64,000 nucleotides of DNA from Nemertoderma westbladi (Eukaryota > Animalia > Xenacoelomorpha): positions 1-64,000 of the forward strand of contig JAUCBJ010008205.1 in NCBI GenBank assembly GCA_032718475.1. The letters run 5' to 3'. Every line of letters begins with the position of its first letter. Positions within the stretch are counted from its first letter, which is position 1. Shown piece after piece: positions 30,305 to 53,463 of this stretch. Below the pieces are notes generated by a model. That model worked only from the letters and a program-made list of their open reading frames with translations. It was not told where the DNA came from and ran no database searches. The translations under genes were made by a program, and so were the position numbers.

Positions 30305-30855
30305 CTGACTTCCAATTTCTGGCTTCTATTTTCTGACTTCCATTTTCTGGCTTCCATTTTCTGACTTCCATTTATTTTTTCTCACTTCCATTTTCTGTCT
30401 TCCAATTTCTCTCTTCCATTTTCTGAATTCCATTGCTCTTTTCTGACTTCCATTTCTTCATTCTGGGTTCCATTTTCACACTTCCTTTTTCTGTCTTCCA
30501 CTTTCTCTCTTCCATTTTCTGAATTCCATTTCTCTTTACTGACTTCCATTTCTTCATTCTGGTTTCCATTTTCTCACTTCCATTTTCTGTCTTCCACTTT
30601 CTCTCTTCCATTTTCTGAATTCCATTGCTCTTTTCTGACTTCCATTTCTTCATTCTGGGTTCCATTGTCTCACTTCCTTTTTCTAACTTCCATTTTCTGA
30701 CTTCCTTTTATCTATTCTGACTTCCATTTCTTTTTTCTCACTTCCATTTTCTGAGTTCCGTTTTCTGACTTCTATTTTCTGACTTATGTTTCTCAGTTCT
30801 GACTTTAACTTTTTTTTATTCTGACTTCTTTATAGGGCGGCAACGGCGCCCCATA
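30305..30855 (-). repeat. (TTCCATTTTCTG)-type repeat array with GGCGGCAACGGCGCCCCATA terminus
   Basis: Higher-order units of about 87 bp; a second copy lies at 35206-35882. Confidence 0.85.
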
Positions 30856-31971: not shown

Positions 31972-32180
31972 CCTAATATCAATGACTAGGTTGTAATCTT
32001 TTAGAATATCATCTCTTGCATTGATCTCTGCCAGTCCGAATTCGACGCCATCTGACACGGATTTGGAACTCCAGACGTCTCCAGACATATATATCAGCCC
32101 TCCCAACCTCACTTCGGACTTTTCTCCGCTTGTACATAATATATTGTAAATCTTTAGCAGTATGTGAGTGAGACACATAA
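31972..32180 (-). CDS. Exon encoding the start of a Venus-flytrap domain (class C GPCR, GABA-B receptor-like)
   Basis: EVRLGGLIYMSGDVWSSKSVSDGVEFGLAEINARDDILKDYNLVIDIR resembles the IGGLFPMSG.W...AV.LAL..IN.R.DIL.DY.L motif and ends at an AGG|GTTAGT donor. The 5' boundary is uncertain. Confidence 0.75.
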
Positions 32181-32489
32181 TATTATTAATTGTAAACATC
32201 ATTGGGAGATGATGAAACAAATTTGATAGAATTTATTAACTATGAATTTAGCTTTTCAACTAATGCTAATAATAAGTTCAGGTTATCATCAGAATAGCTT
32301 TTTCATGCAAAACAGAGTTATCCAATGAAATATGCATTCCCAAAACAACCAATGAGATTCGGGATATGTGGAACAGTCCTCTGTCCAAACACTCAAAGGC
32401 TCGAAATCATAACAACTGCTGAAGTAGGCCTTCTTACTAAACAGTACCCACTGTATTAACCTAATTATATAAGGTAGGTGCTAAAATAC

Positions 32490-32980
32490 ACAACGATCAA
32501 CAAAGAACAAAAATGACCAGCAATGAGCAACAACGAGCAACAACGAGCAACAACGAGCAACAATGAGCAACAACGAGCAACAATGAGCAACAACAAACAA
32601 CAATGAGCAACAACGAGCAGTAATGAAGTACAACAACGAGCAACAATGAGCAATAACGATCAACAACGAGCAACAATGGGCAATAACGATCAACAACGAG
32701 CAACAATGAGCAACAACGAGCAACAATGAGCAATAACGATAAACAACGAGCAACAATGAGCAACAACGAGCAACAATGAGCAATAACGATTAACAACGAG
32801 CAACACTGACTAATAACGAGCAACAATGAGCAATAACGAGCAACAATGAGCAATAACGATTAACAACGAGCAACAATGAGCAACAACGAGCAACAATGAG
32901 CAATAACGATTAACAACGAGCAACACTGACTAATAACGAGCAGTAATAAAGTACAACAACGAGCAACAATGACAACAGCA
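32490..32980. repeat. 10-bp minisatellite (CAACAA[C/T]GAG)n
   Basis: Seen directly; duplicate at ~53762-54252. Confidence 0.95.
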
Positions 32981-33646
32981 ACATGTCATATATTTCATAT
33001 ATTTCATATAACTGAACTTATACTCATACTGAACTTTTAAAACAATATCAATGCAATATGGTGGTAATAATAAAGTTGTGTAGAAACTGTAGAGGCAATT
33101 ATATTTACGGCTTGTTATATTTTATAGCTTGGGCAAAGTACATTCTATAGACTTGTATATTGTATGTAATTAGTACATTATTTGTTCACGATCATTCAGG
33201 TGAAGAGAGTTTTATTCTGTTTGTATACTGTCTAACATAAAGGGTTGGTTTTAGTTTTTGTTATTAACAAGTTTTGTAAGTAGAAAAAGGAGTAATATGT
33301 CTTCACATTCAATTTGTGGAAATTACATTTTCACAACATTTGGAGCCCGATAAAATATACAAAAGAAAATACATTAATATGTATAATTACTTGTGTAATA
33401 ATCAATTGTAAGTCAAAAACTCAAACATGTTTGTCGATACTGTATAACCGCAAAGGGAAAGTCAACAGGCAACCCCATTAATCAAAAGGGTATTTCATCA
33501 CGCAAAGACGATGATGCCTGATCCAAAACCGAGTTGACCAACAACAGCGGGAACCAATGGCAAGAAATTAACAAAACTCGCTAATACAAGAAGCGCCTAT
33601 CGACAACAAGCAACAAACGCAATCAAAGATGTTGGATATATCAATG

Positions 33647-35206
33647 TGTGATATACGCGTAGCGTGTATTAGACTGATCTGAATATATAGGCCGGCTACC
33701 AGTTTGACGGCAGTCTGGTTAGATTGGACTGGCAGAACCGTTCCATCATTACATATGGCGCAGTTTCAGTACTTACCTACTTGCCCATGCAGTACTGCAC
33801 TTTGTACTCGGCCTAACTCACTACTCTGCAATTGCTACCGCACTTTATTACCTTAATAAATAATATCGGCAATTAATATCAATATGGCAAGAGCAAATGA
33901 CAACCGCGACCCATTCTCCTTCATTCTACGAAACTTGCCACCCCCATTCGACCTGGAATCGGAACGCTCCACCTGGGAGCTGTGGTGAGATGAGTGGGAC
34001 ACTTTCCTCGTCACCTCTGGACTTGGAAACTTGCGCGTCACTGACTCAGCCGATCCACCTGACCAAACCATATCGGCAGCTCTTCTAGCGGCAACAAACC
34101 GCATAAGGCGGGCAACTCTGACCACCGCCTTCTCCCACGCAACGAACGCAGTCGTCAAGGGTTTGGGCCTGTCCGCCATCGACAACACAGACACTGATGT
34201 TATCATCTAACATCTCGGCGTCCATATCGATGGCGGGACCAATAAACGCGTCCACCAGCAGGAACTGGCACGCCGATCCTGCCTACTTGAGGAAACTCCG
34301 GAGACATTCCTGGTTAACTTCCGGGATATCGCTTCGAAATGCGGATTCGAGGCACTCCCGACTCCGGATGCCCATCGCAACGACAGACTGCTCGACCAAT
34401 TTATCGCCGGCTTCGGCTATAAAGAGGTTACTGAGCACCTACTCCGGCGCCTCGCAGGAAGTTCGATCACCGGCACCCTCAACCTCGCCCAAACCGTGTG
34501 GACCGTGCGGAAGGATGCAGCCTCACTCTCCTTCTCCTCCACACCAGCACCTATGGCAGCTAAGGCGGAGGCAAGGTCGGATAAACGACGGAAAGGGAAC
34601 CGGAGCCCTCGACAGAGACAGAGCTTACTACCCCATCCAAAGCTACAATTACCACACCTACTGTAGACCGTGATATAGCTTGGCGGGCCCTGGAAACCCG
34701 CTTCCCGCACCCCCTGTAAGGTGTCTGCAGGGTGATGAAGGGTGGGGACATTACTATCAAACTCACTCCGCGCGCGAAACCTAAAAACTCATACGTCAAT
34801 AGGGCCATCCCAGCGAACCTGGAGGAGGCTTTCAACAGGGAACTGGACGAACCGAACAGGTGGCCATGGGGATTCTAGAACCAGCCAACGACGAAAACTG
34901 CCCCAGTGACTAGCTGAGCCCCATGGTTATTACCCGTAAAAAAGACGGCGAATCGGTCCGAATTACCGTCGACCTCCGGGAACTCAACGTGAACATCGTC
35001 CGCCCAACCTACTTCTCCCCATCCCCGTTCTATGTCGTTTTGCGGATCCTGCCCACCGCCGGTGTATTCACCGTTATAGACGGATTAAAGGGGTTCCACC
35101 AGGTCAACTTGGACTGGAGTTGGGGTCTTACAACATTCATCACACCGCGAGGCCACTACCGCTACTGCCGCATGCCCATGGGCTGGCACGGCAGCTCGGA
35201 TGTTTT
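33647..35206 (+). mobile_element. Decayed Ty3/Gypsy element 5' part (LTR, PBS, gag remnant, RT start), copy A
   Basis: About 235-bp LTR TGATAT...AATAAA...ATATCA, followed by TGG; KKDGESVRITVDLRELN, IDGLKGFHQV, TTFITPRGHYRYCRMPMG. Confidence 0.85.
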
Positions 35207-36445
35207 TCTCACTTTCTGTTGTTTTTCTGGTTTTTCTCACTTCCATTTTCTGTCTTCCACTTTCTCTCTTCCATTTTCTGAATTCCATTGCTCTTTTCAG
35301 ACTTCCATTTCTTCATTCTGGTTTCCATTTTCTCACTTCCTTTCTCTCTTCCATTTTCTGAATTCCATTTATCTTTTCTGACTTCCATTTCTTCATTCTG
35401 GGTTCCATTTTCACACTTCCTTTTTCTGTCTTCCACTTTCTCTCTTCCATTTTCTGAATTCCATTTCTCTTTTCTGACTTCCATTTCTTCATTCTGGTTT
35501 CCATTTTCTCACTTCCTTTTTCTGTCTTCCACTTTCTCTCTTCCATTTTCTGAATTCCATTTTTCTGACTTCCATTTCTTCATTCTGGTTTCCATTTTCT
35601 CACTTCCATTTTCTGTCTTCCACTTTCTCTCTTCCATTTTCTGAATTCCATTTCACTTTTCTGACTTCCATTTCTTCATTCTGGTTTCCATTTTCTCACT
35701 TCCTTTTTCTAACTTCCATTTTCTGACTTCCTTTTCTCTATTCTGACTTCCATTTCTTTTTTCTCACTTCCATTTTCTGAGTTCCGTTTTCTGACTTCTA
35801 TTTTCTGACTTATGTTTCTCAGTTCTGACTTTAACTTTTTTTTATTCTGACTTCTTTATAGGGCGGCAACGGCGCCCCATAACCTACTCTCTACAAACCT
35901 TCAAAATATAGTTAACCAAGAAAGCAAATAAAGAGAAATTGGGCTACTCGACATACATGTCAATGAACCCCGGACTTCAACGACAGCGTGCATACGATCA
36001 CTGCTAATCTTCTATGGATATTAAGGTATAGCCAAATGTCGCTACAACAGAACACCACGCAATGGGTGGCTATGCCGTTGTGGGGAAGTGGAAGATGAAG
36101 AACACCTCATTTACCATTGATTGTTGTCGATACCAATCCTTACGAGAACGTTTACACGTGAATAAGAATACCAACTCAAATATATCAGACTTCTTCTCTT
36201 CTGACAATGCACCCTGCATTATTTCCCAGTTCTTCCAGAACGAAAGAGCCTTGCTAACCCATAAACCAAACTACTAATAGCAATTAACAATATCATTTAA
36301 CATATATATTTATTACTTACTATAGAATTATATTCCCTAAATGCCGTGGATTTTCAAAATTTTATTTTATTCGAATTAACTTTGCTAAAAGATTACTTTG
36401 AGTCCTCATTTGTATTTGTTTATCTATTGTACGATGTTTAGTCAA

Positions 36446-36534
36446 GTGGTTCAGTAGCTCAGTCGGTAGAGCTTTGGAAATTATATATGTAGTAGGTATT
36501 GAGTTCGAATCCTAGTAAGTGCGAATTATTTTTT
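36446..36534 (+). promoter_or_regulatory. tRNA-like Pol III module inside the LTR (copy at ~50805-50893)
   Basis: GGTTCAG-TA-GCTC-AGTCGGTA-GAGC (intact D arm/A box), GAGTTCGAATCC (B box), T6 terminator at 36529-36534; acceptor and anticodon stems do not pair. Confidence 0.75.
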
Positions 36535-36600
36535 GTGCAGAATTTCAACTCATTTAAATTGACCGCTACAAATTAAATTGCATTTGTTTGTACCTAGATT

Positions 36601-36842
36601 AACCAATGAGACTGTAGTTATTTGATTGTAACCAATGTCGTACAAGTTATATATTAGCTGGACCAATAGCTTTCTTTAAAAACCTGTTAGAACCTATAGA
36701 ACAATCGAGAATTTTCTCGATTGATTGCAGCACAAATTTGCTATATAAAGGTGCGATTTGTTCATTAGTTCACCTAATTCTTCTTGATTCACTATCTTAC
36801 ATTGTTTATTGTATAATAGTTATTATCTGATTTTGTAATAAA
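36601..36842 (+). promoter_or_regulatory. LTR Pol II promoter and polyA signal
   Basis: Three ACCAAT boxes at ~36602, 36631 and 36662 (about 30-bp spacing), TATATAAA at 36742-36749, Inr-like TTAGTT at ~36765, AATAAA at 36837-36842. Confidence 0.65.
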
Positions 36843-38209
36843 AGTTAGAAATACTTGTCACATCTGCCCTTTTCTATCTGTTTTATCATGCTTCACCACT
36901 GTGAACCCAGCTAAGGGACAGGATGGCCGGCTAGAGATCGGGCCGCAGCAATGAACGGGAACATCAAGGGAATGTAGACAGGAGACAACCCGCAATACCA
37001 TCTTAGTTATTCGCCCATCGCCTGAAAGGTTAGACAGCGTTCGATGCCTTGCTACCTAAGCGTAAGACCAAAGATCAAAGGTAGAAGTAGTGACACGCTG
37101 TACGCCTAAAATTACATCTTAGTGACTGTACCGTTTTAATTCAGGAAAAAACCGCAGTAGACCTTCACATTCCTACGGGGGGGGGGGGGGGGGGGGGAGA
37201 GCAGGCAGAGATACTAGTACGCAGATAGGACGTAGGCACACCGGTACAAAGCATACACATTGGTAGGGTGCAGCAAACTGTACGCCTAACTCTTGCTAAG
37301 TACAGGTGCGTTTGCGACTATTTGTAGTACAACGGTGTCCATTGCATCAGAACTTGTAGGCTAGGGGGGTTGCTGTGTTTCACCTGAATTAGGATTGTAC
37401 CGTTCAGGCGGTAGGGCAGTTTATGACTAGGCGCAAATAAATTGAGGCTATTAGGGATATACTAACATCTACCGTGTCCCCACCAACGTCCTGATAGGAA
37501 GTTACCCAGCCTACCTAGGTGACTAAAATTCTAGATAAGAGCCAGGATAGCTATTTGTAACTGTACGCCTACAGTAGTAAACTAACACATTTCTTCTTAG
37601 TATTAGGGACCTGGTACCTAAAATTGCCGAATTCTGGGCGTAGCATTAACTTTATGCCTGAATTTGAGTCCTGGAAATACGCAAGAGGGGAAGGAGCCTT
37701 ATTATTCGTGAGTATTGGCCCTACAAGTTACAAAATTAGAATATTTGTAAAATGCACACCGTACCCAGTAATTATATATGTGAAGGAGCAAAACTGATCT
37801 TGACGGTTCAGAATTAACACACGCGCGTTAGAAATTATTTACACCTCAAAATATATAAAATTAACTTTCGTCCTTACTGCACTTTGCCCGCTAGTTAGAC
37901 ATCTCCAAATCTCTGCACCTAGCTAGCGTCCCTTTCGCCCAACCATATAAATCACACCGTGGCAAAGTATACGAGCCCCTTAGTCCGTCAGTGAGTCAGC
38001 CTGATTTTAGGATTCGCTGCGCGGGATTTTGTTTTATCGAAGTTTGTCTGCTCGTAGACTGTTTTCTGCCTCACCGGTTATAAGAGATCGATACTGCAAT
38101 ATATTCGCTTACTTAGAGTTTACTGTTTTGGTGAGAAGGTCGGATTTATGATTTGATTCACAAACTTTACAGTTAGATATTGCAGGTATTGTTACTGTCT
38201 CTTCTAATA

Positions 38210-38220
38210 GTAGGAATGTG
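38210..38220 (+). other. Non-tRNA primer-binding site, complementary to LTR 37166-37176
   Basis: GTAGGAATGTG abuts the LTR end, lacks TGG, and is the exact reverse complement of CACATTCCTAC. Confidence 0.75.
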
Positions 38221-39070
38221 TTTTACTGAACTACGGTTCGGTAGGACTAAAGTTATTTGAAAATTTTGTATTTTGAGGTAAAAGTTTATATTTGATTAGC
38301 TAAGTGCTAATTTAAAAAAAAAAATAAAAAAATAAAAAATAAAATTTGATTTGAACCGCGTGTAAAATATTTTTGGAATTGAATACCGGTGATTAAAAAG
38401 GGTTTAAATACCATATTGTACCGGCACAAAATAAATAATAAAAAGTTATTTTACCCTGTCGGTAAAATAAGGTACTCTCGATTTGTCCGGTCGTCGATAC
38501 AATTTTGTCCCCTCTGATTTTGTCTTTCCCGATTTTGACCCCGATTTTGTCTTTACCCGATTATGTCCTCTGTGTGTGCATGGTATGTGTCAGATTTGTG
38601 TTTACCGTAGTGTACTTGATTTCGTGAACATCTGTTGAGTACACGTGTACAGGACGGGTAAGTGGTTACTTGTTCCTAGCTTTCGAGCTGGTCAGTATTG
38701 TTGAGGAACGGTGTCCCCTCAATACTGCCGGCGAGGCAGGTGAAAACGTGTCAAAATTCCAATGTTGGGTAGCGCAAGCCCGCTTGGGACAAGACCGTCG
38801 GTTAGGCCCAAGGGCGACCTTGGTGCTCGATCGCTATCGACTGGTCCACCTGCCGGTTGACTCTTTGTTATACTTTGAGTTGGCTCAATGTACAGTCAGG
38901 CCACAGTAAGTTGACAGTAGCCGCCCATCTGGCTACACGTTCGACGAGCTGTGCTGGTGTGATCGGGGGACCGAAAACAGAACCCGGGAAGCATCAGGCC
39001 ACCCTCCGGCCCGGTCTGATAATAACATCTGTCGGACTGGCCCCAGGGGTGGTGGAAAGGTGTCCGCCTC

Positions 39071-42000
39071 GTGGGTGCGCCTCGGGGAGGAGCCCAGAAG
39101 GACACAAGTGATCAGGGAAAAGCGCCAAGAAGGGACATCAACCAGATTACCAACCAAGGACGCGAAACTCTGAACGTTGCCGCGGAAATAGCGAAATTCG
39201 CAGCTAGACAAGGACTACCGGTGCAACAACCACCTAAGTTTTCCGGTAGCTCAAAACACTGGCACACTTTCGTAGACTATATCGAATCTCAGATCGCCGT
39301 GTGCGCCTTTACATCACGGGAGAAGTTTAATTACCTGCTTCAAACGTTGTCAGGAGAACCTAAACGTTTGTCGGAGACCTTCGTTGGTGTACTGGACGCC
39401 TTCGAACTAGCGTACGATCGTTTAACTTCGATCTACGGAGGTACAGTCAGCATGGCCAGGTCAGTGATAGAGGAACTCTGTAAGGGAGGGGCTATTACTA
39501 AACCCGTCGACTTATTAAAACTAGCTGACGAAATAAAGAACGCTATTACTACTTTGAGATCCATTGGACAACTTGACTACGGGAATACCCCTACAGTCCT
39601 ATTAAAGATCATAGGACGACTCCACCATCGACTTCGTCGGGAGTGGAGGAAGATCGAATACCAGCGGGAAGAGCGGGGTGGATTCTTAAAACTGGAAGAT
39701 GTGTACCTTTTGATATCCAGGGAAGCAGTGGTAGAAACTCGATCCAACTACACTGACCAACACATCGTAGCAGAAGGGATCACCTTGCCATCCTCCAACC
39801 GACAAAAACCCCAGACAACATCCACCAAGACGGCCACTTACGCCACACCGACGGAAACCCGACAATTCTCGGACGGTAGTAGGGTATCTGTGCCCATTGG
39901 AATAAAACAGACTAGACAGCAACTCAGTACAGACTTCAGCGGCTGCCAATACTGCGAGCATTTAGGCAAGCGGTATATCGGTCACAAGTTGAGAGGTTGT
40001 CGACAGTTTCGCGAGTTAAACTCGGAAGAACGACGGCTGCAGATACGGCCATTGGACTCTTGTTGGCGGTGTACGCGACACGGACACGTCCGCAAAGATT
40101 GCCCAAATACCGACACTTGTCCATCCTGTGGACGCAACCACGACGGTCTGCTCCACACAGACAGCCACACGCCGACAAAACGCTTCGCCAGGGAACACCC
40201 GGAAGCAGCAGCGAAATGTAATTCGGCCTACAATAATCGAGAATCGAAAACGACTCCAACCTTCGTGACACATATTAAGGATTGCTTCTCAGAACAATCC
40301 GGATCGTCGGACGAAGAGTCAGAAGACGACAACGTATATTCGGATGGAGATGAACAGCCATCGATCGCGCTTCTGATGACTGACCAACTAAAGGGTTTCA
40401 GTGTAATTCCGATTAAGATTACTGGCACAAAGGGGAGCAAGAGAATCTACGCTATTCTAGATTCAGCCTCATCTCACAGCTACGTGGATGAGCAGATAGC
40501 TGATGTCGTGACGGATCTCAGACAAGGTAAGCGCGTCAGTTACACCGTAAGTAGTATGCACGGACAACGTGCAATACCAGTGACACGAGTTAAGTTAAAC
40601 TTAGACACTCTTCTTCCGAAATCGCAACACAGCGAAAAGGAGAGGTCTTTGTTACCCTTTAAGGATTTGACTTTTGCGGCCACCAAGGACTTTAGTAACC
40701 TACTAGGTCCTGTCCCAGAACAATCCTTGGAGGACCGTAAGTATTTCAGACACCTTGGTGTACCTGAATGTCCTGTCAATTACAGATCAGTAGCAATGCT
40801 GATCGGGACAGATCAATTCAACCTACATCAAGTGTGGGAAACCAGACCATCGGTAGTCGTAGCAGGAAACGCATACGCCTGTAGAACGCCGATAGGGTGG
40901 TATACTCGAGCGCCTGTGCGCACACTAGACATAAGTGACGAGGAAGACGATGTACAAAGTACATGTAGTTTATTAACTACAAATTCAATTCATTCCTTTT
41001 CACACGACGTGGACCATACTACCTTACATACAAAACACGACAGACGTGTAACTAGTATGATAAGTCACAAGGAGCAGCTAATCCACCAGGTGAGTTTAGA
41101 ACTTGGGGAGAAGACGAGTCAGCCAGAGATTCCATCGACGACAGATGATAACGCCGGAAGGCTTGCGAGTCTACCTACACCAATAACCTCAACAATGCCC
41201 GTCAATATCGATGACTACGCGTTAAGAAACCATCAAGTGGAACAAGCTGCATTGGACAAAGAATTAACGGAGAAGACTATCAGGTGGTTAGAACAAGATA
41301 CAGCCGAACCTGGTAGCTACGAACCATGTATGTCGGAACAGGAGAAACAATCTTTGAAGATCATGGAAGGTACTATCCGCCAGACGAAAGACGGACATTA
41401 TGAGGTAGGGATGTTATGGCGTAGCCAAAGTCCTAAACTCATAAATAACTACCTGTTAGCTTTAAAACGTCTACACTCAATACGACAACGTCTATTAAAG
41501 GACGAGAAAGCCCATCTGCAGTATAACTCTCAGATGGAGACATATTTGACCAAGGGATACGCTATCCGAATGACTAACCCGGAGATAGTGACTGACCAAA
41601 CATATTACTTGCCACATCACTTTGTGAGACACCCCGATAAACCAGACAAAGTATGTGTAGTCAATGACTGTGCGGCTCTGTTTGAGGGAATGTCCCTCAA
41701 TAGTGAGTTAATGGATGGACCAAACATGAATAATTATCTTATGGGGGTGATTATGCGCTTCCGTCAGCGTCAAGTAGCTTTTACTTGCGACGTTGAAGCG
41801 ATGTTTCACCAAGTGAGAGCGTTAGAGCGAGACAGAGACAGTTTGAGGTTCCTCTGGTACCCGGAAGGAGACTTAAGTCTACCACCGCCGACTTACCAAA
41901 TGCAAGTTCGCGTTTTCGGTGCCAGGGACAGCCCAAACTGCACGATGTACGCCCTAAAACAAGCCGCTAGGGATCAGAAACATTTATATGACCCAGAGAT

Positions 42001-43921
42001 AATTAAAATCGTAGAACGTGACTTTTACGTCGACGATGGTTTACAGAGTTGTGACACAGTAGAACGTGCTACAACAGTAGCACATCAATTACGGGACTGC
42101 TTAGCGGGCGGAGGTTTTAACCTCACCAAATTCGCCTCAAACAGTGCCGAATTGGTAGACTCATTCGGAACGACTGAGCGTGGGGGTGGTGACATAGACC
42201 TAGAGTTCGAACCACTACCGACGACCAAGGTGTTGGGGCTCTTTTGGGACCCAAACACGGACAACTTTCGAGTGAAAGTGAGACTGGACAGTCAAGAAAA
42301 CACACTGACAAAGAGATCATGCTTGTCAAAATTGAGCCGATTGTTCGATCCATTAGGATTCATCAGTCCAATAATAATACTGCAAGCCCGAATTTTTATG
42401 CGCAGTATTTGGAAGGATGGACTGACATGGGACGAGCCGATCTCATCAGACCAAGTGGACTTATGGAAAACCTGGGAGGCAGAATTATCTTCGCTAGAGG
42501 ATTATTCCATACCCAGAGTCTACTTTCCATTACAAACGACATTTTCTGACAACTTGGAATTACATTGTTTTTCCGACGCTAGTGACAACGGCTTTGGTGT
42601 GGCAGCGTACTTGCGCAGACAAGTAGACTCAGAAGAATTCGATGTTTCGCTCATTACTTCTAAGGCAAAAACAATGCCTACTAAGTATATGACGACACCA
42701 CGAGCTGAGCTACAAGCCGCAACCCTGTCAACCACAATCGTGAACCTTATACAGACAGAACTACAGTCAAGTTTACAGATATTTTATTGGACTGACGCGA
42801 CGTTGGTTTTATTTTACATAAACAACGACACACTTGAATTCAAGACATTCGTAGCTAACTGTCGCGCAGAAATTCTAGACCGTTCAATAAAAGAGGATTG
42901 GCGACATTGTCCCGGACCACAAAACCCAGCTGATATTGCGTCGCGAGGAATGATGCCTGAAGAATTCTGTAAACCGGAGAACAAAGAATTTTGGCAACAC
43001 GGACCCCAATTCTTGCAGAAATCGACACTATATTGGCCGCCCTTATACGACAACAAGTCTAACACTATCCCTAAAGATGCGGAAATTAAAAAACCAAAGA
43101 AAGGGAAAGCAAAGAAAAAGACAGCGGCCAAACTTAAGAAAAAACCGAAGGCGAAATGGAAAGATATAACTTCAAAGGTCAAGAATGGAAGACTTGCGAG
43201 CCTTTCTACACCAGACATATCGCCAGACGGTCAACCAGACACGTTACTAGACAGTCAACCAGACATTTTGCCAGACATATCACAAAATGTTCCACCAGAC
43301 ACTAGTAACATATTGACAAATAGTGAAGCCGCAGTTTCTCTATTGGAGCGGCCTTCTATTGACAAACAACCAGATACGTTACCAGACGTATCGCCAGACA
43401 CGTTACTAGACGGTCAACCAGACGTTTTGCCAGACACGTCATTAGATATTTCGCCGGATGTTCCGCGAAACATTTTACCAGACATGTCACAAAATGTTCT
43501 ACTAGACACTAGTAACATATTGACAAATAGTAAAGCCGCAGTTTCCCTATTGGAGCGGCCTTGTATTGACAAACTACCAATTTTGACACACTTGAGCAAC
43601 CATAAGCACGGTGAAACCTCATGTATTACGGATGTGGGTAGTACCTACGCTAATGTAAATACAGGTGTTACTCTGCGCTCAAGAGACATACCAAACTTGC
43701 AACCTATGGTGAGACCTGGGATTAATATCGGCAGAAAATTAAGTTTACCGAAACCCACTGACCCCATAGAGTTCAAACCACCATTAACGATCGACTTACA
43801 AAGTACTGACAATCAAGGTAAGAAGACGAAGAAGGACAAATTACTTGTAGACCCGGACGGATCAACAGTCAACAAGGGAATACTTACCGGCGGACCCGTG
43901 GGCCCTTCTAGTAAATCATAA
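39071..43921 (+). CDS. gag-pol: BEL/Pao Gag-protease-RT-RNase H polyprotein (true start uncertain)
   Basis: PKFSGSSKHWHTF..EKFNYL (gag); triple knuckle ending HDGLLH; AILDSAS (PR); YYLPHH, CDVEAMFHQV, FYVDD (RT); LHCFSDAS, PRAEL, YWTD, NPADIASRG (RH). Confidence 0.96.
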   Translation: MGAPRGGAQKDTSDQGKAPRRDINQITNQGRETLNVAAEIAKFAARQGLPVQQPPKFSGSSKHWHTFVDYIESQIAVCAFTSREKFNYLLQTLSGEPKRLSETFVGVLDAFELAYDRLTSIYGGTVSMARSVIEELCKGGAITKPVDLLKLADEIKNAITTLRSIGQLDYGNTPTVLLKIIGRLHHRLRREWRKIEYQREERGGFLKLEDVYLLISREAVVETRSNYTDQHIVAEGITLPSSNRQKPQTTSTKTATYATPTETRQFSDGSRVSVPIGIKQTRQQLSTDFSGCQYCEHLGKRYIGHKLRGCRQFRELNSEERRLQIRPLDSCWRCTRHGHVRKDCPNTDTCPSCGRNHDGLLHTDSHTPTKRFAREHPEAAAKCNSAYNNRESKTTPTFVTHIKDCFSEQSGSSDEESEDDNVYSDGDEQPSIALLMTDQLKGFSVIPIKITGTKGSKRIYAILDSASSHSYVDEQIADVVTDLRQGKRVSYTVSSMHGQRAIPVTRVKLNLDTLLPKSQHSEKERSLLPFKDLTFAATKDFSNLLGPVPEQSLEDRKYFRHLGVPECPVNYRSVAMLIGTDQFNLHQVWETRPSVVVAGNAYACRTPIGWYTRAPVRTLDISDEEDDVQSTCSLLTTNSIHSFSHDVDHTTLHTKHDRRVTSMISHKEQLIHQVSLELGEKTSQPEIPSTTDDNAGRLASLPTPITSTMPVNIDDYALRNHQVEQAALDKELTEKTIRWLEQDTAEPGSYEPCMSEQEKQSLKIMEGTIRQTKDGHYEVGMLWRSQSPKLINNYLLALKRLHSIRQRLLKDEKAHLQYNSQMETYLTKGYAIRMTNPEIVTDQTYYLPHHFVRHPDKPDKVCVVNDCAALFEGMSLNSELMDGPNMNNYLMGVIMRFRQRQVAFTCDVEAMFHQVRALERDRDSLRFLWYPEGDLSLPPPTYQMQVRVFGARDSPNCTMYALKQAARDQKHLYDPEIIKIVERDFYVDDGLQSCDTVERATTVAHQLRDCLAGGGFNLTKFASNSAELVDSFGTTERGGGDIDLEFEPLPTTKVLGLFWDPNTDNFRVKVRLDSQENTLTKRSCLSKLSRLFDPLGFISPIIILQARIFMRSIWKDGLTWDEPISSDQVDLWKTWEAELSSLEDYSIPRVYFPLQTTFSDNLELHCFSDASDNGFGVAAYLRRQVDSEEFDVSLITSKAKTMPTKYMTTPRAELQAATLSTTIVNLIQTELQSSLQIFYWTDATLVLFYINNDTLEFKTFVANCRAEILDRSIKEDWRHCPGPQNPADIASRGMMPEEFCKPENKEFWQHGPQFLQKSTLYWPPLYDNKSNTIPKDAEIKKPKKGKAKKKTAAKLKKKPKAKWKDITSKVKNGRLASLSTPDISPDGQPDTLLDSQPDILPDISQNVPPDTSNILTNSEAAVSLLERPSIDKQPDTLPDVSPDTLLDGQPDVLPDTSLDISPDVPRNILPDMSQNVLLDTSNILTNSKAAVSLLERPCIDKLPILTHLSNHKHGETSCITDVGSTYANVNTGVTLRSRDIPNLQPMVRPGINIGRKLSLPKPTDPIEFKPPLTIDLQSTDNQGKKTKKDKLLVDPDGSTVNKGILTGGPVGPSSKS

Positions 43922-45478
43922 CCTTCCAAATTCTCCATTGACTTACCTGATGACGTCACAAATACTTACGTCGACCGTATTGTAAACTTAACAGACTCTT
44001 GGACAAACGCTTGCCGAAAATTAGCGTGGATTGTACGTTTTGTACAATACGTTAAAGGCAAACGAGACTTTACACGTCGACTTACATTGACTGAGATTGA
44101 CAGGTGTGAGATTAAATTAATTCGCCATTACCAACTGCGATATTTCACGCGCGAATTCACATCTATAAGTCAAGGTCAACCAATCAAGTCGTCACCAATA
44201 CTGAGTTGGAGTCCGATAATTTATAATGGCTTAATTTGTCATAAATCTCGGCTTCAAAACATTGACTTTAACACAAACTTTAGGTACCCAATAATAATAC
44301 CGCAACATCACGAACTACAACGTGCAATGATACTGGACGCACATTTACATCTGAAACACGCTGGAAGACACCACTGTCTTTCCTACTTACGTACAAGATT
44401 TGTATTAATTAGACCCAGTAAAGCGTTAAGTTCAGTGACACGTACGTGTATTATTTGTAAAAAGGTACATTCTAGAATAGGTACCCAAGAAATGAGTGAA
44501 CTTCCACAAGCACGACTTCAAGCATTCAGACCACCTTTTACAGAGACTGGAATTGATTGCTTTGGTCCCATTCATACGAAACGTGGACGTATACTAGTAA
44601 AACGCTGGGGACTGATTTTCACATGTATGTCCAGTAGGGCAGTTCATATCGAACGTGTGATGGATCTTTCCACCAACGCGTTTATACTAGCATTGCGGCG
44701 ATTTATCGCTAGACGCGGACTAGTGAAATGCTTGTACTCAGACCAAGGTACAAACTTTGTTGGTGCTCGAAATGAGATTGCTAGAGCCTTTAAGAAATTA
44801 GATCATGATCAAATCTCGAACGAACTACAACCTCACAAGATTGTTTGGAAGTTTAATCCTCCAGATAGTCCATGGAGAGGCGGAGTCTGGGAGAGATTGA
44901 TTAGATCTATAAAGACAGCCATGGCAAAGGTCATTCCAGTAAACCACATATTGACAGACGACCAACTGACAACACTGTTTGTTGAAATCGAGGCAATACT
45001 AAATACTAGACCAATAGTATTAGTACCCGATGACAAACAATCTCAGTTTGCTTTGACACCGGCACACCTGCTTATGCAGGCACCGACGACTTTGACGCCT
45101 ATTTCTATTCCAATAGAAAGCGATAGCTACGGTAGAAAAGCGTGGAAAATCACGCAACTACTGGCTAACAAATTCTGGGAAATATGGCAAAACCATTATT
45201 TGCCCTCTATTTCTGCCAGAACAAATTGGTACAATAACACCCGCGCATTAAAGCCGGGAGATCATGTGCTGTTAGCAGAAGTGAATCTAAAAAGACGCTT
45301 CTGGATAACAGGTGTAATTTTAGCCACACATCCATCTATGGATGGAGTGACAAGAACTGTGACAGTACGGACAATTGACGGTCGTACAGTAGACAGACCG
45401 ACTCAACGTCTCATACTTCTTGAAGAGACTCGTAATGAGTCTGGAGACTACAAATCTCCAACTAGTATTAGTAAATAA
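43922..45478 (+). CDS. BEL/Pao integrase, same frame as the upstream ORF and separated by one TAA
   Basis: HLHLKH..CIIC zinc finger; GIDCFGP, SDQGTNF, GGVWER (D,D,E); LTPAHLL; C-terminal LKPGDHVL..DGVTRTVTVRT. Confidence 0.95.
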   Translation, partial: PSKFSIDLPDDVTNTYVDRIVNLTDSWTNACRKLAWIVRFVQYVKGKRDFTRRLTLTEIDRCEIKLIRHYQLRYFTREFTSISQGQPIKSSPILSWSPIIYNGLICHKSRLQNIDFNTNFRYPIIIPQHHELQRAMILDAHLHLKHAGRHHCLSYLRTRFVLIRPSKALSSVTRTCIICKKVHSRIGTQEMSELPQARLQAFRPPFTETGIDCFGPIHTKRGRILVKRWGLIFTCMSSRAVHIERVMDLSTNAFILALRRFIARRGLVKCLYSDQGTNFVGARNEIARAFKKLDHDQISNELQPHKIVWKFNPPDSPWRGGVWERLIRSIKTAMAKVIPVNHILTDDQLTTLFVEIEAILNTRPIVLVPDDKQSQFALTPAHLLMQAPTTLTPISIPIESDSYGRKAWKITQLLANKFWEIWQNHYLPSISARTNWYNNTRALKPGDHVLLAEVNLKRRFWITGVILATHPSMDGVTRTVTVRTIDGRTVDRPTQRLILLEETRNESGDYKSPTSISK

Positions 45479-46141
45479 TTAGGAGTTTACAAATAGATTT
45501 CCACGTACCTGTACACCGTAGTAAGGACAGCGGTAGAATTCCATTGTCTTTATATGTGAACATTGAGGGTAGTACCCTTATGTGTCACATAGGAGCGGGA
45601 TTTGTAGGTATAAGAAATGGAATTCTACTTGGAACTCACAATATTGAGACATTTTCGAAATTTTAGACAATCCATTTGGATTTGAAAATTTTTTTACAAT
45701 TTTCTCCAGTGAATAGATTTCAGGGTACAGTCGGGTGGAACTTAAAATTAGAGAAACAAGAGAGGAAGACTTGCGAGCCTTTCTTAAAATTTTAATTAAA
45801 TTTTACACGGTCTTGTTTCAATAAGTTACGTCAATAAATAGACTCCCCTATATTTATTACTAATTCTTGACTGCTTATTTTCTGATAATAGTTTGGGATC
45901 AAAAGGTGAGTATTTTAGACTCACAGCCAGTTTAGCCCAAATTCGTTTTTTATTTCGGCAAAAAATTTTAGATAAGAAGCAGCGTGTCATTAAAGAAACC
46001 CTAGATCTTAGGCTATGGGTAGGAGGTTAGAGCGTTGTCAAGCCCAATGGGCAGACGAAACTCTCACGTCTCCTCACAACTAACTACAAACTCTGTTGTA
46101 TTCCCTCTAGTAGTAATGATTATGTAACTACACCTCTAATT

Positions 46142-49100
46142 ATGGAGAAAGGGATACAAGGAGAGCCGAGATGGGGATATGATATCCAAGAGGAGGCAGC
46201 AGCGCCATTCGAAAGATTTGGAGCCAAGGACTACACTATATTTGGTATAAAAGAATTATCAGAAAGTACTGCAAAACTCGCGAGAACTAAATATGACTCA
46301 AATGTATTAAAGAGAAGACAAAACGCATTAAATGAAAGAATCGAAAGTTTGCGCAAAACCTTCAATGAACTTTACCCGTACGACGCTTTGTGTGATACGG
46401 GAGACATTAGCAAAGACCCCGATACTGAAATTAGTCGTTTGTATCATACCATGCAATACCTAAAGGCGCACGAACCTATGCCCGCAGTACGAGATGAATT
46501 CGATGGAATGCACCTTTACAGACGAACTCGAGGGGACGATAGAGAAACCAAGGAAGCATTTTCAGTTTATAAACTTTATTATCAATGCGGTTCTTGTATG
46601 CGCGAACAACGAAATGCGATTCCGATGCGTTTGAATAAGGAAAATCCCGAACCGATATTGGCGAGGTGTTCGAATCATCAACAACTACGCTACCAGGAAG
46701 GAGGGTATCCTTTATCGAATCCATATCATTCATTTGCTATGACTGGACCAAAGGTGGGAGAAACTGTCATTTACCCACCTAAGGTTGTTGAACCCGATGT
46801 ATTTGAACTTACGCTGGACGAGGCGAATCAGTCAACCCGCGAAAAGAAAGAAGCTCTTAGCCTATACAGAGCCTACAAGGTTTTCGAGAAAGGTGAGATG
46901 GAAGAATGGGGCGGAAGACTCGCGAGCCTACCTTACCATTGGACGTCACACGATCAAACTCCAGCTAAGGAGATGACACCGGAAGTTTTCGAGAGCATAA
47001 ACTTTGCTCAAAACGTTATTCAGAAACTACAGATTGCATCCCCGGAAAGGACAAGAGAAATGCAACCATATAGTACTTCAACTACAAAACCATTGAGTAC
47101 GACACTCAATTTTCCTATTAGTATACCAGTCCGACAGGATACGACGTACGAAATACCCATCGTGGATCATCCAGAAATCATTTCAAACTTGGAGTTTCTT
47201 CCTGCAGTTGTTTTCAGCGATATGAGTAAGATATATGATTTACGTAGACATATTACTCAAAAGGTCGTGTACAACGTTCCACCTCATATTCAAGACTTTA
47301 AGGAACTGGATAGAGCTGGTGCCGATATAGCTGAGAGTAATTTGAAAGGATATTTAACCAAGACGATTCGTTTATGGATTAGAATCGGAACCTTCGAGTC
47401 GGATACAGATATTGCCGCGGATTGGCGAGGTAAGGTTATTCGTTTCGAAGATGATAAGGACATAGAGAAGATTTGGCAACCTTCGGAAGAATTGTTGGAT
47501 GAATGGAATAGGACGTTTAGATCGTTCCAGGAAAATGGTTACATGTTTTACGATAACGAGGGCGGCAGTCATCAACAGAGTTTGACTTCTAAGACTATAC
47601 AAATTAGAGCGGCGGACGGAGTCCTGCACGTTTTCAGTAGACAGAGGAGCGACAAACGAATGCCGATACCTCCAGCAAATACAAAGCGACACCATCTCAT
47701 CACTGACATAGTAAAGAAGATGGACCAAGCTTGTAATATCGACGCTAGAATGCTACCGAAGATGGTAAGAAACATGATTTTAGATAAAACTGTTGTAAAG
47801 ATTGGATCAGGAGTAAGGGAGGACTTAATTAGCGACTTCGCCGGCATGACGGACAGCGATGACCGACTACCGACACCTTACGTCGACACTCGACCTCTTA
47901 TTTTGTGGTCTATAGAACAGGGATATTTTCGTGAGTATAATACTCAGAAGACTGGAACCGGATACATTTCCTACCTGTTATTCAATTGGGATTATAAGGA
48001 AAGTAAGAGAACCAAGTATATTGAGACTTGTGGAGAAGGTGATACTCCAGATATGAGTGAGTTTGAATCACAGCTTAAATGGAGAGGATGCGTGTATTGG
48101 GCTATTACATCACCTCCAAGAGCGGTCTTACAATATTATTTAGCAATAGAGTCGTCAGTGAATGTTTGCTTAATCGCCGACATTGTGTCTCGGACTCTCA
48201 AAAGACATCCACTTTGTCTCGGAGAAGATCATACGTTCTACATGGAAGGGAGAATTCATACCGACGTGTTTAGACGATTCCTTGAACCCTTCTACAACTC
48301 CGACGCTCAGTGTAATGCCTTTACTCGAGCAGGATTTAGTATATTTCGAGACGTGTATCTTCGCTGTGCGGGATCTCTTATCGAAAGACCATCTATGTTT
48401 ACATTGTTACCCTATGAAGGAGAACGTATCGTGGAGATTACGGAAGAATCACGGCAGACGCGCGCGCCTATCGGTCACCTTGGTGATGATTTCGAAGTAA
48501 CTACTACGATCACTGACGATCCTTTAGAGGAACTTCTTGAGATAGAAAGGAACCTCCCGAAGAAATCTCAGACGGAGATTCGACAACTTGAAGCAACAGA
48601 TGCTATAGTTTGTATACAACCCTCAGAAACCTACCAACCCATAGACCCAGATGATTATGATTATAGTGTGGGAGGAAGCGCTCGACTGATTGGAGATCTT
48701 ATATACGAACGAGTGTGGTACCCTGCCAATACGATGTGTGGTAAATGTGGCGTCGCTGGACATCATATGACAAATTGCAGTGGAAAGCACATTACTACGA
48801 CTCAGCTAATCTGTGGATGGTATGGAGATCAAGGGTCTCATACCTTTTATACTTGCTGGAGATTTATGGCTCAATGTACTTATTGCAATATAAAAGGGCA
48901 TCGAGCATCTGAATGCCAACTAAGAGACATACCTTATGAACACGAATCTGTAAAACTCGTGAGAAAATTATTCGATGAGTGGGAAGATTTAGCCGACGAA
49001 CATGTATCGGCACAAAGAAGACGATTTCCGATGAGGGCGCATCTTGGATTTTGGGCGGTAAATCCCCAAACGATGATGTCGGAAGGATACATCTCCGCTA

Positions 49101-49867
49101 TGCCCCAATATGACGAACTTATCGAGGTAGTCGATATTTTGCCCCACGACAGTGGATTCCGAGTAGTGCGCGAGTATCTATTACAGATTCACCCGGATAA
49201 CAAAAACACGTGGAATTTTCCGAAAGTCGTTAATCGCATCACGTATGGTGAATTTGATCGTTTCCGAACTGAAAAGCGGAATAAAGGAGCTTGGTTAACC
49301 GTCGCATGGGCGTACCGAGCCGCGTTTTACCACAAACGTATACGAGCGAGCGTATTCGAAGAAGAGGAGGTCCTAGAGGCGACAAATATACCAGCCACTC
49401 CGGTTGCGCCGTCTGCACGTCACCCTCGGGAGGACGGACAGGGTAGGATCATACGGGTCCAGAAAGTGAGCCAACAATTAAAGAAGTCTATTAATATAGA
49501 AGAACGCAAGGGAGCTGAGCCGACCATTCGAATTACTCGGGATACGGTATCACTTCCTAGAGAACCAACAGGAGGATCGGGACACACACCAGCTGATCAA
49601 AAGGGGGCGCAAGCTACTCTTGGGTCTGCGTCGTCCGCTTCTCGCGCATTCCCAGACGTTCTACCAACTGTAGTGACAACTGATCGGTCACAAGGAATCG
49701 GTCGAGGTTTTGGGATGCCAAATAGACGAATTTGCGAGGAAATAGTCGCACCGTCTCTCAACGTCCAAACGAAACCAGTGACTCGCCCCACGAGTCCCAT
49801 ATCGCGAGCAAAGTCACCTGTGCGCAGTTTTCGAGGACGCGGCAGGGCTCGATCCACTAAGCGATAA
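46142..49867 (+). CDS. Extra ORF: DnaQ/DEDD (WRN/RNase D-like) 3'-5' exonuclease plus three CCHC zinc knuckles
   Basis: ExoI GYMFYDNEG (47537-47563), KTIQIRA..LHVF, ExoII ILDKTVVKIGSGVRED..YVDT, ExoIII-like QYYLAIE; knuckles CGKCGVAGHHMTNC, CGWYGDQGSHTFYTC (degenerate), CTYCNIKGHRASEC; basic RG-rich tail; no TM or signal peptide seen. Confidence 0.85.
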   Translation: MEKGIQGEPRWGYDIQEEAAAPFERFGAKDYTIFGIKELSESTAKLARTKYDSNVLKRRQNALNERIESLRKTFNELYPYDALCDTGDISKDPDTEISRLYHTMQYLKAHEPMPAVRDEFDGMHLYRRTRGDDRETKEAFSVYKLYYQCGSCMREQRNAIPMRLNKENPEPILARCSNHQQLRYQEGGYPLSNPYHSFAMTGPKVGETVIYPPKVVEPDVFELTLDEANQSTREKKEALSLYRAYKVFEKGEMEEWGGRLASLPYHWTSHDQTPAKEMTPEVFESINFAQNVIQKLQIASPERTREMQPYSTSTTKPLSTTLNFPISIPVRQDTTYEIPIVDHPEIISNLEFLPAVVFSDMSKIYDLRRHITQKVVYNVPPHIQDFKELDRAGADIAESNLKGYLTKTIRLWIRIGTFESDTDIAADWRGKVIRFEDDKDIEKIWQPSEELLDEWNRTFRSFQENGYMFYDNEGGSHQQSLTSKTIQIRAADGVLHVFSRQRSDKRMPIPPANTKRHHLITDIVKKMDQACNIDARMLPKMVRNMILDKTVVKIGSGVREDLISDFAGMTDSDDRLPTPYVDTRPLILWSIEQGYFREYNTQKTGTGYISYLLFNWDYKESKRTKYIETCGEGDTPDMSEFESQLKWRGCVYWAITSPPRAVLQYYLAIESSVNVCLIADIVSRTLKRHPLCLGEDHTFYMEGRIHTDVFRRFLEPFYNSDAQCNAFTRAGFSIFRDVYLRCAGSLIERPSMFTLLPYEGERIVEITEESRQTRAPIGHLGDDFEVTTTITDDPLEELLEIERNLPKKSQTEIRQLEATDAIVCIQPSETYQPIDPDDYDYSVGGSARLIGDLIYERVWYPANTMCGKCGVAGHHMTNCSGKHITTTQLICGWYGDQGSHTFYTCWRFMAQCTYCNIKGHRASECQLRDIPYEHESVKLVRKLFDEWEDLADEHVSAQRRRFPMRAHLGFWAVNPQTMMSEGYISAMPQYDELIEVVDILPHDSGFRVVREYLLQIHPDNKNTWNFPKVVNRITYGEFDRFRTEKRNKGAWLTVAWAYRAAFYHKRIRASVFEEEEVLEATNIPATPVAPSARHPREDGQGRIIRVQKVSQQLKKSINIEERKGAEPTIRITRDTVSLPREPTGGSGHTPADQKGAQATLGSASSASRAFPDVLPTVVTTDRSQGIGRGFGMPNRRICEEIVAPSLNVQTKPVTRPTSPISRAKSPVRSFRGRGRARSTKR

Positions 49868-50679
49868 AAGGGAGGGTAAGGGTGGACGGAAGACTCGTGA
49901 GCCTTTCTTGTGAATTTGTGATTTATTTGAATTATATGTTTTATATTTAGTAAGTTTTGTATTCTGGAAAACTCATATTTAGTAAGAATTATATTTAGTA
50001 AGATTTATATTTAGTAAGATTTATATTTAGAAGGAAGTTATATTTTGCAAGATTTATATTTTATATTTGTGATTATTCCGAACTTATGCAATTTATATTG
50101 TTCCGAATATTATGCAATTTATATCTTATAAGCAGTATTCGTATTTACAGTGAAATAGAAAGTAAGAGTAGATGGAAGACTCGTGGGCCTTTCTTATAGT
50201 TTCATTTGTAAAGTGTTATATTTTGTAAGTTTTATAGTTAGTAAGTTTTGTGCTTAGAAAGACTCATATTTGTAATTATTCCGAACTTATGCAATCTACA
50301 TTTAGGCACGAAAGTATTTGTAATTATTTGAATTTATGCAATATTTGAGATGCAATAGTAGATGGAAGACTCGCGAGCCTTTCTTATTGTTTTCATTTAT
50401 TTGTATTTGTAATTGTTTGAATTTATGCAATATTGAGATGCAATAGATTTATATTGGTGAATTTAATTTAGATTTATATTGTACTTACTTAGTAAAGCCT
50501 TAAATACGTAAAGTTTGAATTTGTAATTACTTTTGTATCGAATCATTATGTAGAAAGGAAGTATTGTTTGAAATTTAATTGTAAATATGTAAGTACGCCC
50601 TAAGTATTCTATAGTTTGATTGATTATTGGTGAAAACCGTATATTTTATGCACGATAATATCCTGTTTTCATGGAGCGG

Positions 50680-52574
50680 TATAGAATTATATTCCCTAAA
50701 TGCCGTGGATTTTCAAAATTTTATTTTATTCGAATTAACTTTGCTAAAAGATTACTTTGAGTCCTCATTTGTATTTGTTTATCTATTGTACGATGTTTAG
50801 TCAAGTGGTTCAGTAGCTCAGTCGGTAGAGCGTTGGAAATTATATATGTAGTAGGTATTGAGTTCGAATCCTAGTAAGTGCGAATTATTTTTTGTGCAGA
50901 ATTTCAACTCATTTAAATTGACCGCTACAAATTAAATTGCATTTGTTTGTACCTAGATTAACCAATGAGACTGTAGTTATTTGATTGTAACCAATGTCGT
51001 ACAAGTTATATATTAGCTGGACCAATAGCTATCTTTAAAAACCTGTTAGAACCTATAGAACAATCGAGAATTTTCTCGATTGATTGCAGCACAAATTTGC
51101 TATATAAAGGTGCGATTTGTTCATTAGTTCACCTAATTCTTCTTGATTCACTATCTTACATTGTTTATTGTATAATAGTTATTATCTGATTTTGTAATAA
51201 AAGTTAGAAATACTTGTCACATCTGCCCTTTTCTATCTGTTTTATCATGCTTCACCACGGTGAACCCAGCTAAGGGACAGGATGGCCGGCTAGAGATTGG
51301 GCCGCAGCAATGAACGGGAACATCAAGGGAATGTAGACAGGAGACAACCCGCAATACCATCTTAGTTATTCGCCCATCGCCTGAAAGGTTAGACAGCGTT
51401 CGATTCCTTGCTACCTAAGCGTAAGACCAAAGATCAAAGGTAGAAGTAGTGACACGCTGTACGCCTAAAATTACATCTTAGTGACTGTACCGTTTTAATT
51501 CAGGAAAAAACCGCAGTAGACCTTCACATTCCTACGGGGGGGGGGGGGGGGGGGGGGGAGAGAGAGCAGGCAGAGATACTAGTACGCAGATAGGACGTAG
51601 GCACACTGGTACAAAGCATACACATTGGTAGGGTGCAGCAAACTGTACGCCTAACTCTTGCTAAATACAGGTGCGTTCGCGACTATTTGTAGTACAACAG
51701 TGTCCATTGCATCAGAACTTGTAGGCTAGGAGGGTTGCTGTGTTTCACCTGAATTAGGATTGTACCGTTCAGGCGGTAGGGCAGTTTACGACTAGGCGCA
51801 AATAAATTGAGGCTATTAGGGATATACTAACATCTACCGTGTCCCCGCCAATGTCCTGATAGGAAGTTACCCAGCCTACCTAGGTGACTAAAATTCTAGA
51901 TAAGAGCCAGGATAGCTATTTGTAACTGTACGCCTACAGTAGTAAACTAACACATTTCTTCTTAGTATTAGGGACCTGGTACCTAAAATTGCCGAATTCT
52001 GGGCGTAGCATTAACTTTATGCCTGAATTTGAGTCCTGGAAATACGCAAGAGGGGAAGGAGCCTTATTATTCGTGAGTATTGGCCCTACAAGTTACAAAA
52101 TTAGAATATTTGTAAAATGCACACCGTACCCAGTAATTATATATGTGAAGGAGCAAAACTGATCTTGACGGTTCAGAATTAACACACGCGCGTTAGAAAT
52201 TATTTACACCTCAAAATATATAAAATTAACTTTCGTCCTTACTGCACTTTGCCCGCTAGTTAGACATCCCCAAATCTCTGCACCTAGCTAGCGTCCCTTT
52301 CGCCCAACCATATAAATCACACCGCGGCAAAGTATACGAGCCCCTTAGTCCGTCAGTGAGTCAGCCTGATTTTAGGATTCGCTGCGCGGGATTTTGTTTT
52401 ATCGAAGTTTGTCTGCTCGTAGACTGTTTTCTGCCTCACCGGTTATAAGAGATCGATACTGCAATATATTCGCTTACTTAGAGTTTACTGTTTTGGTGAG
52501 AAGGTCGGATTTATGATTTGATTCACAAACTTTACAGTAAGATATTGCAGGTATTGTTACTGTCTCTTCTAATA
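50680..52574 (+). repeat. 3' LTR (1895 bp)
   Basis: Direct repeat of 36321-38209, preceded by a short PPT-like ATGGAGCGG. Confidence 0.97.
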
Positions 52575-53254
52575 CTTACTGTATGTCATATTAGTTTATT
52601 TGTATTTATCTGTATTTATTAGTACTCAACAATATATCATATATTATGATTTACAACGTATTAGTTTATTTGTTTAGTTATTTATTTATCATATATTCAT
52701 CGTATCCATGTATTCACATCGTCACATTTTGTTATCATGTATTCATCGTCACATTAGTACTTGACTTTACATTAATTTATTTGTATTGACTATAGTTATT
52801 TGTATTACTAGTAACTATATATTCATCATCACATCCTGTATTATTTTAGGAACATAGTTTATATCTGCACATAATGTCAGTACATTGCAATTAGTAAATT
52901 TATAAGTAAGGTCTTTGTTCACACTACATTCTCCTTATATATATTTCCCGTTTATAATCTTCATTTGAACTGATCCCTTTATAAATTGTTTATTTATAGT
53001 AATACAGTATGTTTTAGTACCTAGAAGGTGAATTAACTGTTTATTATATTATTGTTTGTACTGTTCCTTAAGTAGTCAATTATATACACACATGCATACA
53101 TACATACATATGGGATCAATTCAATACAAAGTGAACCCCAATTAACACTCATGCAATCATATAAGAGTTGTCAATAATTCTAAATGATATATTTGACTGT
53201 AATATTATATATATGTATTGAGTACATTTATTATGACCACATCCTTAAACTAAC

Positions 53255-53463
53255 CCTAATATCAATGACTAGGTTGTAATCTTTTAGAATATCATCTCTT
53301 GCATTGATCTCTGCCAGTCCGAATTCGACGCCATCTGACACGGATTTGGAACTCCAGACGTCTCCAGACATAGATATCAGCCCTCCCAACCTCACTTCGG
53401 ACTTTTCTCCGCTTGTACATAATATATTGTAAATCTTTAGCAGTATGTGAGTGAGACACATAA
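53255..53463 (-). CDS. Duplicate class C GPCR/GABA-B-like exon
   Basis: Same as 31972-32180 with one Y>S change (GGLISMSG). Confidence 0.75.

Follow-up and report, generated by a model that had tools for sequence, protein, structure and literature searches.

A tRNA primer site with TGG is usual for BEL/Pao retrotransposons. The 16.25-kb BEL/Pao-type element studied here, which lies in a 64,000-nucleotide stretch of DNA (the window), has no TGG in the site after its 5′ LTR, and the locus raises the question of what primes its reverse transcription. The first-pass annotation proposed that the element encodes its own primer. Our analysis of the element and its relatives suggests that a segment of its own RNA does serve as the primer, a reading that is drawn from sequence and to which we give a probability of roughly 80%.

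The paired LTRs are flanked on both outer sides by CTTAC, a 5-bp target duplication that falls within the 4–6 bp of BEL/Pao elements (Table 1). PF05380, DUF1759 and DUF5641 are all present and the integrase lies downstream of the RT and RNase H, an arrangement shared with the BEL/Pao (Belpaoviridae) elements of marine invertebrates and fish; RVT_1 gave no score in the domain search of the element frames. In the RT region, identity to BEL/Pao proteins bearing mollusc, cnidarian, echinoderm or nemertean names is 38–44%, while the integrase shares 31–43% with BEL/Pao proteins that bear marine-invertebrate names, and with fish ones. Thus the domains and nearest proteins are those of BEL/Pao, and not the Ty3/gypsy-type RT and integrase of the Tf1/sushi group. 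The element may be Sinbad/Suzu-like. It differs from the usual BEL/Pao element in the missing TGG site, in an extra non-env ORF and in LTR ends that read TA...TA instead of TG...CA, a feature that the first-pass annotation did not record. TG...CA ends are usual in BEL/Pao and not invariant, and TA-ending LTRs also occur in several of the BEL/Pao relatives. The LTRs are 1.9 kb long, compared to 0.2–1.2 kb for BEL/Pao in the accessible part of PMC3118150. They differ from each other by 16 mismatches and one 6-nt indel within the G run/AG stretch, and the element is young. Thousands of short contigs of organism A match the LTR (4928 in run X1) and the family is therefore multi-copy, although contig depth does not equal copy number. 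Single-protein scans revealed no close relatives, and none was found among viral contigs.

Table 1 Coordinates of the element and its predicted features in the window.
Feature	Position	Strand	Remarks
Target site duplication CTTAC, left copy	36316..36320	+	5 bp
5′ LTR	36321..38209	+	1889 nt; TA...TA ends (non-canonical)
TATA-like box, candidate promoter	36742..36749	+	~420 nt upstream of 11-mer
Candidate poly(A)-like site	36837..36885	+	AATAAA, CA ~17-20 nt on, then U-rich tract; upstream of 11-mer
Predicted branched RNA rod holding 11-mer	36990..37460	+	~470 nt; z -3.4 (5′ LTR), -2.2 (3′ LTR); limits chosen after inspection
Candidate self-primer (11-mer) CACATTCCTAC	37166..37176	+	ends in AC
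G run	37177..37197	+	21 nt in 5′ LTR, 23 nt in 3′ LTR
Second AATAAA, candidate end of R	37436..37441	+	260 nt downstream of 11-mer
Primer binding site GTAGGAATGTG	38210..38220	+	offset 0 from LTR; no TGG
gag-pol frame	39026..43921	+	DUF1759, zinc knuckles, protease, RT (YVDD), PF05380; terminates in in-frame stop
Integrase frame	43922..45478	+	H2C2 zinc domain, DUF5641; same reading frame as gag-pol
ORF3	46031..49867	+	1278 aa; DEDDy/WRN-like 3′-5′ exonuclease-like domain (~aa 480-730), CCHC zinc knuckles (aa 903-965)
Purine-rich tract adjoining 3′ LTR	50665..50679	+	short; ends GGAGCGG
3′ LTR	50680..52574	+	TA...TA ends; second 11-mer copy at 51525-51535
Target site duplication CTTAC, right copy	52575..52579	+	

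An in-frame stop (43919–43921) separates the RNase H and integrase frames, downstream of a long low-complexity insert. The element interrupts a near-identical repeat unit of ~5 kb, in its second copy (30377–36320 and 52575–56479; 97.6–99.5% alike); subrepeats of 10 and 14 nt lie in this unit, together with gag and RT pieces that are gypsy-like. Elsewhere in the window (2051–3200, 8700–10100 and 21500–23230) are 71- and 58-nt satellite arrays and a minus-strand non-LTR-type RT fragment.

The element's primer binding site (PBS) represents the exact reverse complement of the 11-mer present in each LTR, and the window holds no other copies. Watson-Crick pairing extends by zero further bases on either side. 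Since the pairing ends at the LTR boundary, the 3′ end of the primer would lie opposite the last LTR base. Sequence comparison bears out these statements of the first-pass annotation: the 11-nt complement, the missing TGG, the stop precisely at the boundary and the run of 21–23 G residues 3′ of the 11-mer. Tf1-like self-priming is recognized by an own-LTR complement of at least 10 nt at an offset of 0–5, and here 11 nt are found at offset 0. Matches of at least 11 nt at offset 0 occurred at 14 of 20,000 random internal positions (7e-4), and at 26 of 20,000 when offsets 0–3 were allowed. When 25 foreign primer sites were compared with the 1.9-kb LTR under a loose rule that admits offsets 0–5 and splice junctions, 4 of them reached 10 nt and 2 reached 11 nt. 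Because the LTR is long and two foreign sites reach 11 nt, the window alone is suggestive but inconclusive.

A tRNA fragment or another small host RNA might also prime, with the LTR match being chance or a by-product. Loose matches are indeed common in so long an LTR, and the CCU triplet within the 11-mer stands where one could see an anticodon loop; the low chance under the strict rule, the absence of TGG and the lack of any tRNA or Rfam match within the window argue against a host RNA, which we regard as an unlikely primer. The LTR itself has no notable Rfam match to a ribozyme or known RNA, and no hammerhead core.

The relatives carry the argument further. An alignment search gave 110 loci, with best segments mostly 30–44% identical, of which 50 had an inspected repeat pair and 27 were tested; L100 and L110 (7–8 nt) were left out for want of resolved LTR ends, so that 25 with a resolved 5′ LTR end remained. 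Four of these have TGG primer sites and an own-LTR match of just 4–6 nt. TGG is absent from the other 21, and 19 of them have a 10–15 nt complement in their own LTR at offsets 0–5, which is assembled across a GT-AG intron in 14 cases and contiguous in five. When primer sites and LTRs were swapped between elements, only 3 of 607 pairs reached 10 nt and none reached 11. The offset window was enlarged from 0–3 to 0–5 after three misses, and at the stricter offsets 16 of the 21 non-TGG relatives reach at least 10 nt; the 10-nt, 0–5 rule is also that of PMC6317226. The two remaining misses are L002, with one single mismatch, and L016, a sister of L066, with a short deletion at the junction. Many loci come from few hosts, so that the counts refer to families and not to independent species. 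In a held-out set, 9 of 14 stretches were resolved, all of the TGG type with an own-LTR match of at most 6 nt; they provide negative controls and no positives. The excess among true pairs (19/21 versus 3/607) supports the claim that a BEL/Pao element encodes its own RT primer, priming itself being read from these sequences.

The primer 3′ ends of the 19 relatives are AC in 14, ACT in three and AT in two. The complementarity itself, its boundary stop, the like arrangement in 19 of the 21 non-TGG relatives and this common AC end are all directly observed. Compensatory changes between PBS and LTR complement, which had been suggested as a check, are seen between related families: the sister families L003 and L007 differ at two primer bases, each matched in the primer site, and L047, L051 and L070 likewise co-vary. 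None is shown inside the window element's own family. The spliced primer of L085 and the contiguous one of L109 belong to sisters (support 95/95). In the tree, from which four labelled rows with too little RT were omitted, the window element groups with the self-complementary relatives and is separated from three tRNA users (100/100). It sits on a long branch (1.61) and its placement is uncertain, with weakly supported neighbours (82/74) that include the tRNA user L099. This possible neighbour would favour a host-RNA primer, but offset 0 and the AC end agree with the clade pattern of self-complementary elements.

In five more families, which have a cut 3′ LTR (L010, L040, L048, L073 and L082), the two best of 14–32 candidate LTR ends include one with a splice-junction complement of 10–11 nt that ends in AC. 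The same pattern is found in 8 of the 11 loci with a cut 3′ LTR, three of the eight repeating known families. Animal BEL/Pao elements with both LTRs also sit in records filed as bacterial genomes (L001–L031 and L124–L137). PF05380 was found in 5/5 such records searched versus 0/14 controls, and these elements are host DNA in metagenome bins.

A splice-built primer was considered for the window element as well and was rejected, as the candidate junction of 10 nt uses a poor donor and only 7 nt remained under stricter splice sites. Conservation of the 11-mer was likewise not accepted from the variant-free interval 37152–37181 (versus 14 variable sites in 37101–37151). The first 31 nt of that survey are also blank; as another survey had variants there, the blank is an edge effect and was not used as evidence of conservation.

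The position of the 11-mer in the transcript was the next point at issue, and two models had been put forward: (a) the transcript starts at the 11-mer, or (b) the 11-mer is internal. The second fits better. There is no TATA-like box between 36744 and 37773, and the primers of 14 relatives span an intron; as exon 1 contributes only 3–9 nt of these primers, the transcript is unlikely to begin with the primer. A strictly Tf1-like arrangement, in which the genomic RNA begins at the Inr-like TCACATT and the 11-mer is its first 10–11 bases, would therefore demand a first exon of 3–9 nt in those relatives. Its length of 11 nt is that of the Tf1 primer, TCACATT fits what we take to be an initiator pattern, and in folds starting at 37166 the primer/PBS duplex is near-certain (0.9–1.0 for most pairs). 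Of 17 relatives, 2 have a TATA-like box 26–31 nt upstream of the primer, but another 6 have theirs 43–235 nt upstream and 9 lack one, and the nearest one upstream in the window element is 420 nt away. We consider this arrangement improbable; the window 11-mer is probably internal to its transcript.

Of 17 relatives, 13 have a poly(A) hexamer downstream of the primer, and not one has AATAAA upstream of it. This layout would fit a primer internal to R that is cut in cis, with the remaining R serving strand transfer. The window element alone has AATAAA upstream of the primer, a hexamer (36837) that a diverged piece of organism B also contains. Its primer lies 1033 nt from the LTR end, compared to 44–216 nt in the relatives (n = 17).

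Several other signals are found in the LTR. A tRNA-like stretch in its 5′ part (36446–36525) contains motifs that we take to resemble A-box and B-box sequences; ARAGORN and Rfam find nothing there. The stretch overlaps a GTAAGT donor-like site at 36515, and an acceptor-like site follows at 36597. The region toward the LTR end (37946–38058) has another TATA-like box as well as donor-like (GTGAGT, 37991) and acceptor-like (38058) sites. The spacing of these two sites, 67 nt, resembles the length of short introns in the relatives, and the TATA-like box near the LTR end may be an internal promoter.

RNA folding places the 11-mer within the predicted rod, where its last five bases pair locally with 37356–37360. 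Rod-breaking variants number 11 of 26 versus 10.2 expected, which gives no conservation support, with partner-side changes invisible in this test. In full-length folds starting at 36765 the primer/PBS duplex has a probability of 0.46–0.48.

A second stem between AGAGCAG, downstream of the G run, and the end of U5 had also been proposed, and it is not supported here. The stem can be drawn, yet pairing is equally good in 2.7–5.7% of 1428 element windows, and better with 2 of 17 foreign LTR ends. In relatives the second duplex averages −8.6 kcal/mol for own and −8.5 kcal/mol for swapped sequences. A variant in two runs has the U5 stretch of the proposed stem replaced, its sequence rejoining 5 nt before the primer site. 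The part assigned to the G run in this stem is also unsupported: the run varies in length and is absent from a low-depth variant (contigs of one sample) that also lacks the last six bases of the 11-mer, a loss that counts against self-priming.

Together, these observations suggest a mechanism in which an internal 11-mer of the element's own RNA primes the minus strand after its 3′ end has been cut by the element RNase H, as in Tf1. As a whole chain we consider it somewhat better than an even bet. Transcription from near 36770 would make the 11-mer internal to the RNA, the 11-mer would anneal to the PBS, a predicted RNase H cut between 37176 and 37177 would provide a 3′-OH, and RT would extend from the last LTR base, copying U5. 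A cut template would halt the first DNA at 37177, and therefore either R would extend to the AATAAA at 37436, the template itself being cut (cis), or the site at 36837 would end R and a second RNA molecule would supply the primer (trans).

ORF3 might offer another source for the primer end. In Atlas, its residues 480–730 gave PF01612 in 30 of 30 named matches (score 0.92–0.93, 169–177 shared features), with agreement from a further Atlas query, and the acidic motifs D507/E509, D598 and Y-x3-E near 703–707 would correspond to ExoI–III. The zinc knuckles match zf-CCHC (E 6e-4) and Pfam found no other domain in ORF3. A decayed ORF3 homologue lies on the minus strand of the window (28750–25600), with a zinc-knuckle part (E 2e-5) and short matches at two exonuclease-like motifs; a purine tract comes next, and then a TG that apparently opens the 3′ LTR of another element, whose pol and second LTR are absent from the window. 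Since this homologue sits beside what appears to be another element, the ORF3 module is common to more than one element in the host.

With such an enzyme, an LTR-derived RNA of the element itself, either a short polyadenylated transcript or an excised intron (candidate donor 37062, acceptor 37600), might be trimmed 3′ to 5′ until pairing with the PBS protects it. Trimming of this kind would account for a pairing that halts at the LTR boundary, and splice-like signals, among them those at 37062, 37144 and 37600, lie on both sides of the 11-mer. With the poly(A)-like site at 36837, the 11-mer would fall in U5, where a cut in cis would block strand transfer, and the decayed homologue retains its zinc knuckles and motifs one and two. 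In the accessible part of PMC5408684, such ORFs are suggested as possible processors of retroelement RNA 3′ ends, but unrelated retroelements also carry DEDDy ORFs, for which no link to priming is known. By HMM the exonuclease assignment is weak: a custom profile built from a small bacterial set gave 2.4 bits (2nd of 204, one motif region aligned) and hhalign a probability of 5%. Sequence searches returned no ORF3 homologue apart from the decayed copy, and two structure models had a pLDDT of 30–32, too low for reading a fold. No BEL/Pao relative compared has an ORF3 match, and the clade must therefore form its primer end without ORF3. Trimming by ORF3 thus appears unlikely to us. We hold in similarly low regard a broader scheme in which the BEL/Pao clade self-primes mostly via a spliced primer, whereas here the primer would have moved beyond the poly(A) site into a very large, structured U5, to be made in trans from a separate LTR-derived RNA and trimmed by a captured 3′-5′ exonuclease. 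RNase H cutting of an internal 11-mer is the mechanism that we prefer.

Self-priming has been described for the Tf1/sushi and Tcn1 groups of Ty3/gypsy and predicted for the copia TAR lineage (PMC6317226 and PMC4600332, both in part), and in Tf1 an RNase H cut yields the 3′ end of the self-primer (PMC7175516, in part). A tRNA site is likewise lacking in the fission-yeast elements Tf1/Tf2 and Tj1 and in the Tf1/sushi and Tcn1 groups, whose PBS is complementary to ~11 nt of their own LTR (PMC7175516, PMC4600332 and PMC6317226, in part). The window element has BEL/Pao and not Ty3/gypsy enzymes; it probably works like Tf1 without belonging to the Tf1 group. Its primer is probably internal, whereas that of Tf1 is the first 11 bases, a second duplex is unsupported here, and most of its relatives assemble the primer across an intron. 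For the TAR lineage (Houba and Osr-1; plant Ty1/copia) self-priming was predicted by the same test, at least 10 nt at offset 0–5; it belongs to another superfamily and kingdom, and the accessible part of PMC6317226 notes no extra exonuclease-like ORF in it. The Juno and Vesta LTR elements of a bdelloid rotifer have a DEDDy ORF3 after pol that is RNase D/WRN-like and in some has a Cys-His motif; the candidate exonuclease ORF of the window element, also after pol, is like it by description. The window ORF differs in its 1278 aa and several zinc knuckles, and no tie to priming is reported for Juno and Vesta in the accessible part of PMC5408684.

We found no description of a self-priming BEL/Pao element in our searches of the openly accessible literature. 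A word look-up in the accessible parts of PMC554778, PMC3118150, PMC8220671 and PMC3601003 gave none, and those of PMC3118150 and PMC554778 contain no mention of a PBS or tRNA.

If the element and its relatives do self-prime, replication would be tied to RNA processing, with an internal primer that in most members is formable only by splicing. This would account for BEL elements annotated without a primer site, and a complement in the own LTR ending in AC would serve as an end-finding rule for BEL elements. The window element would also offer a testable link of a retroelement DEDDy ORF, the function of which is an open question in the accessible part of PMC5408684, to primer making. Such elements may be independent of tRNA supply and of tRNA-site-directed silencing, and BEL/Pao would be the third LTR superfamily to have abandoned tRNA priming, over many animal families.
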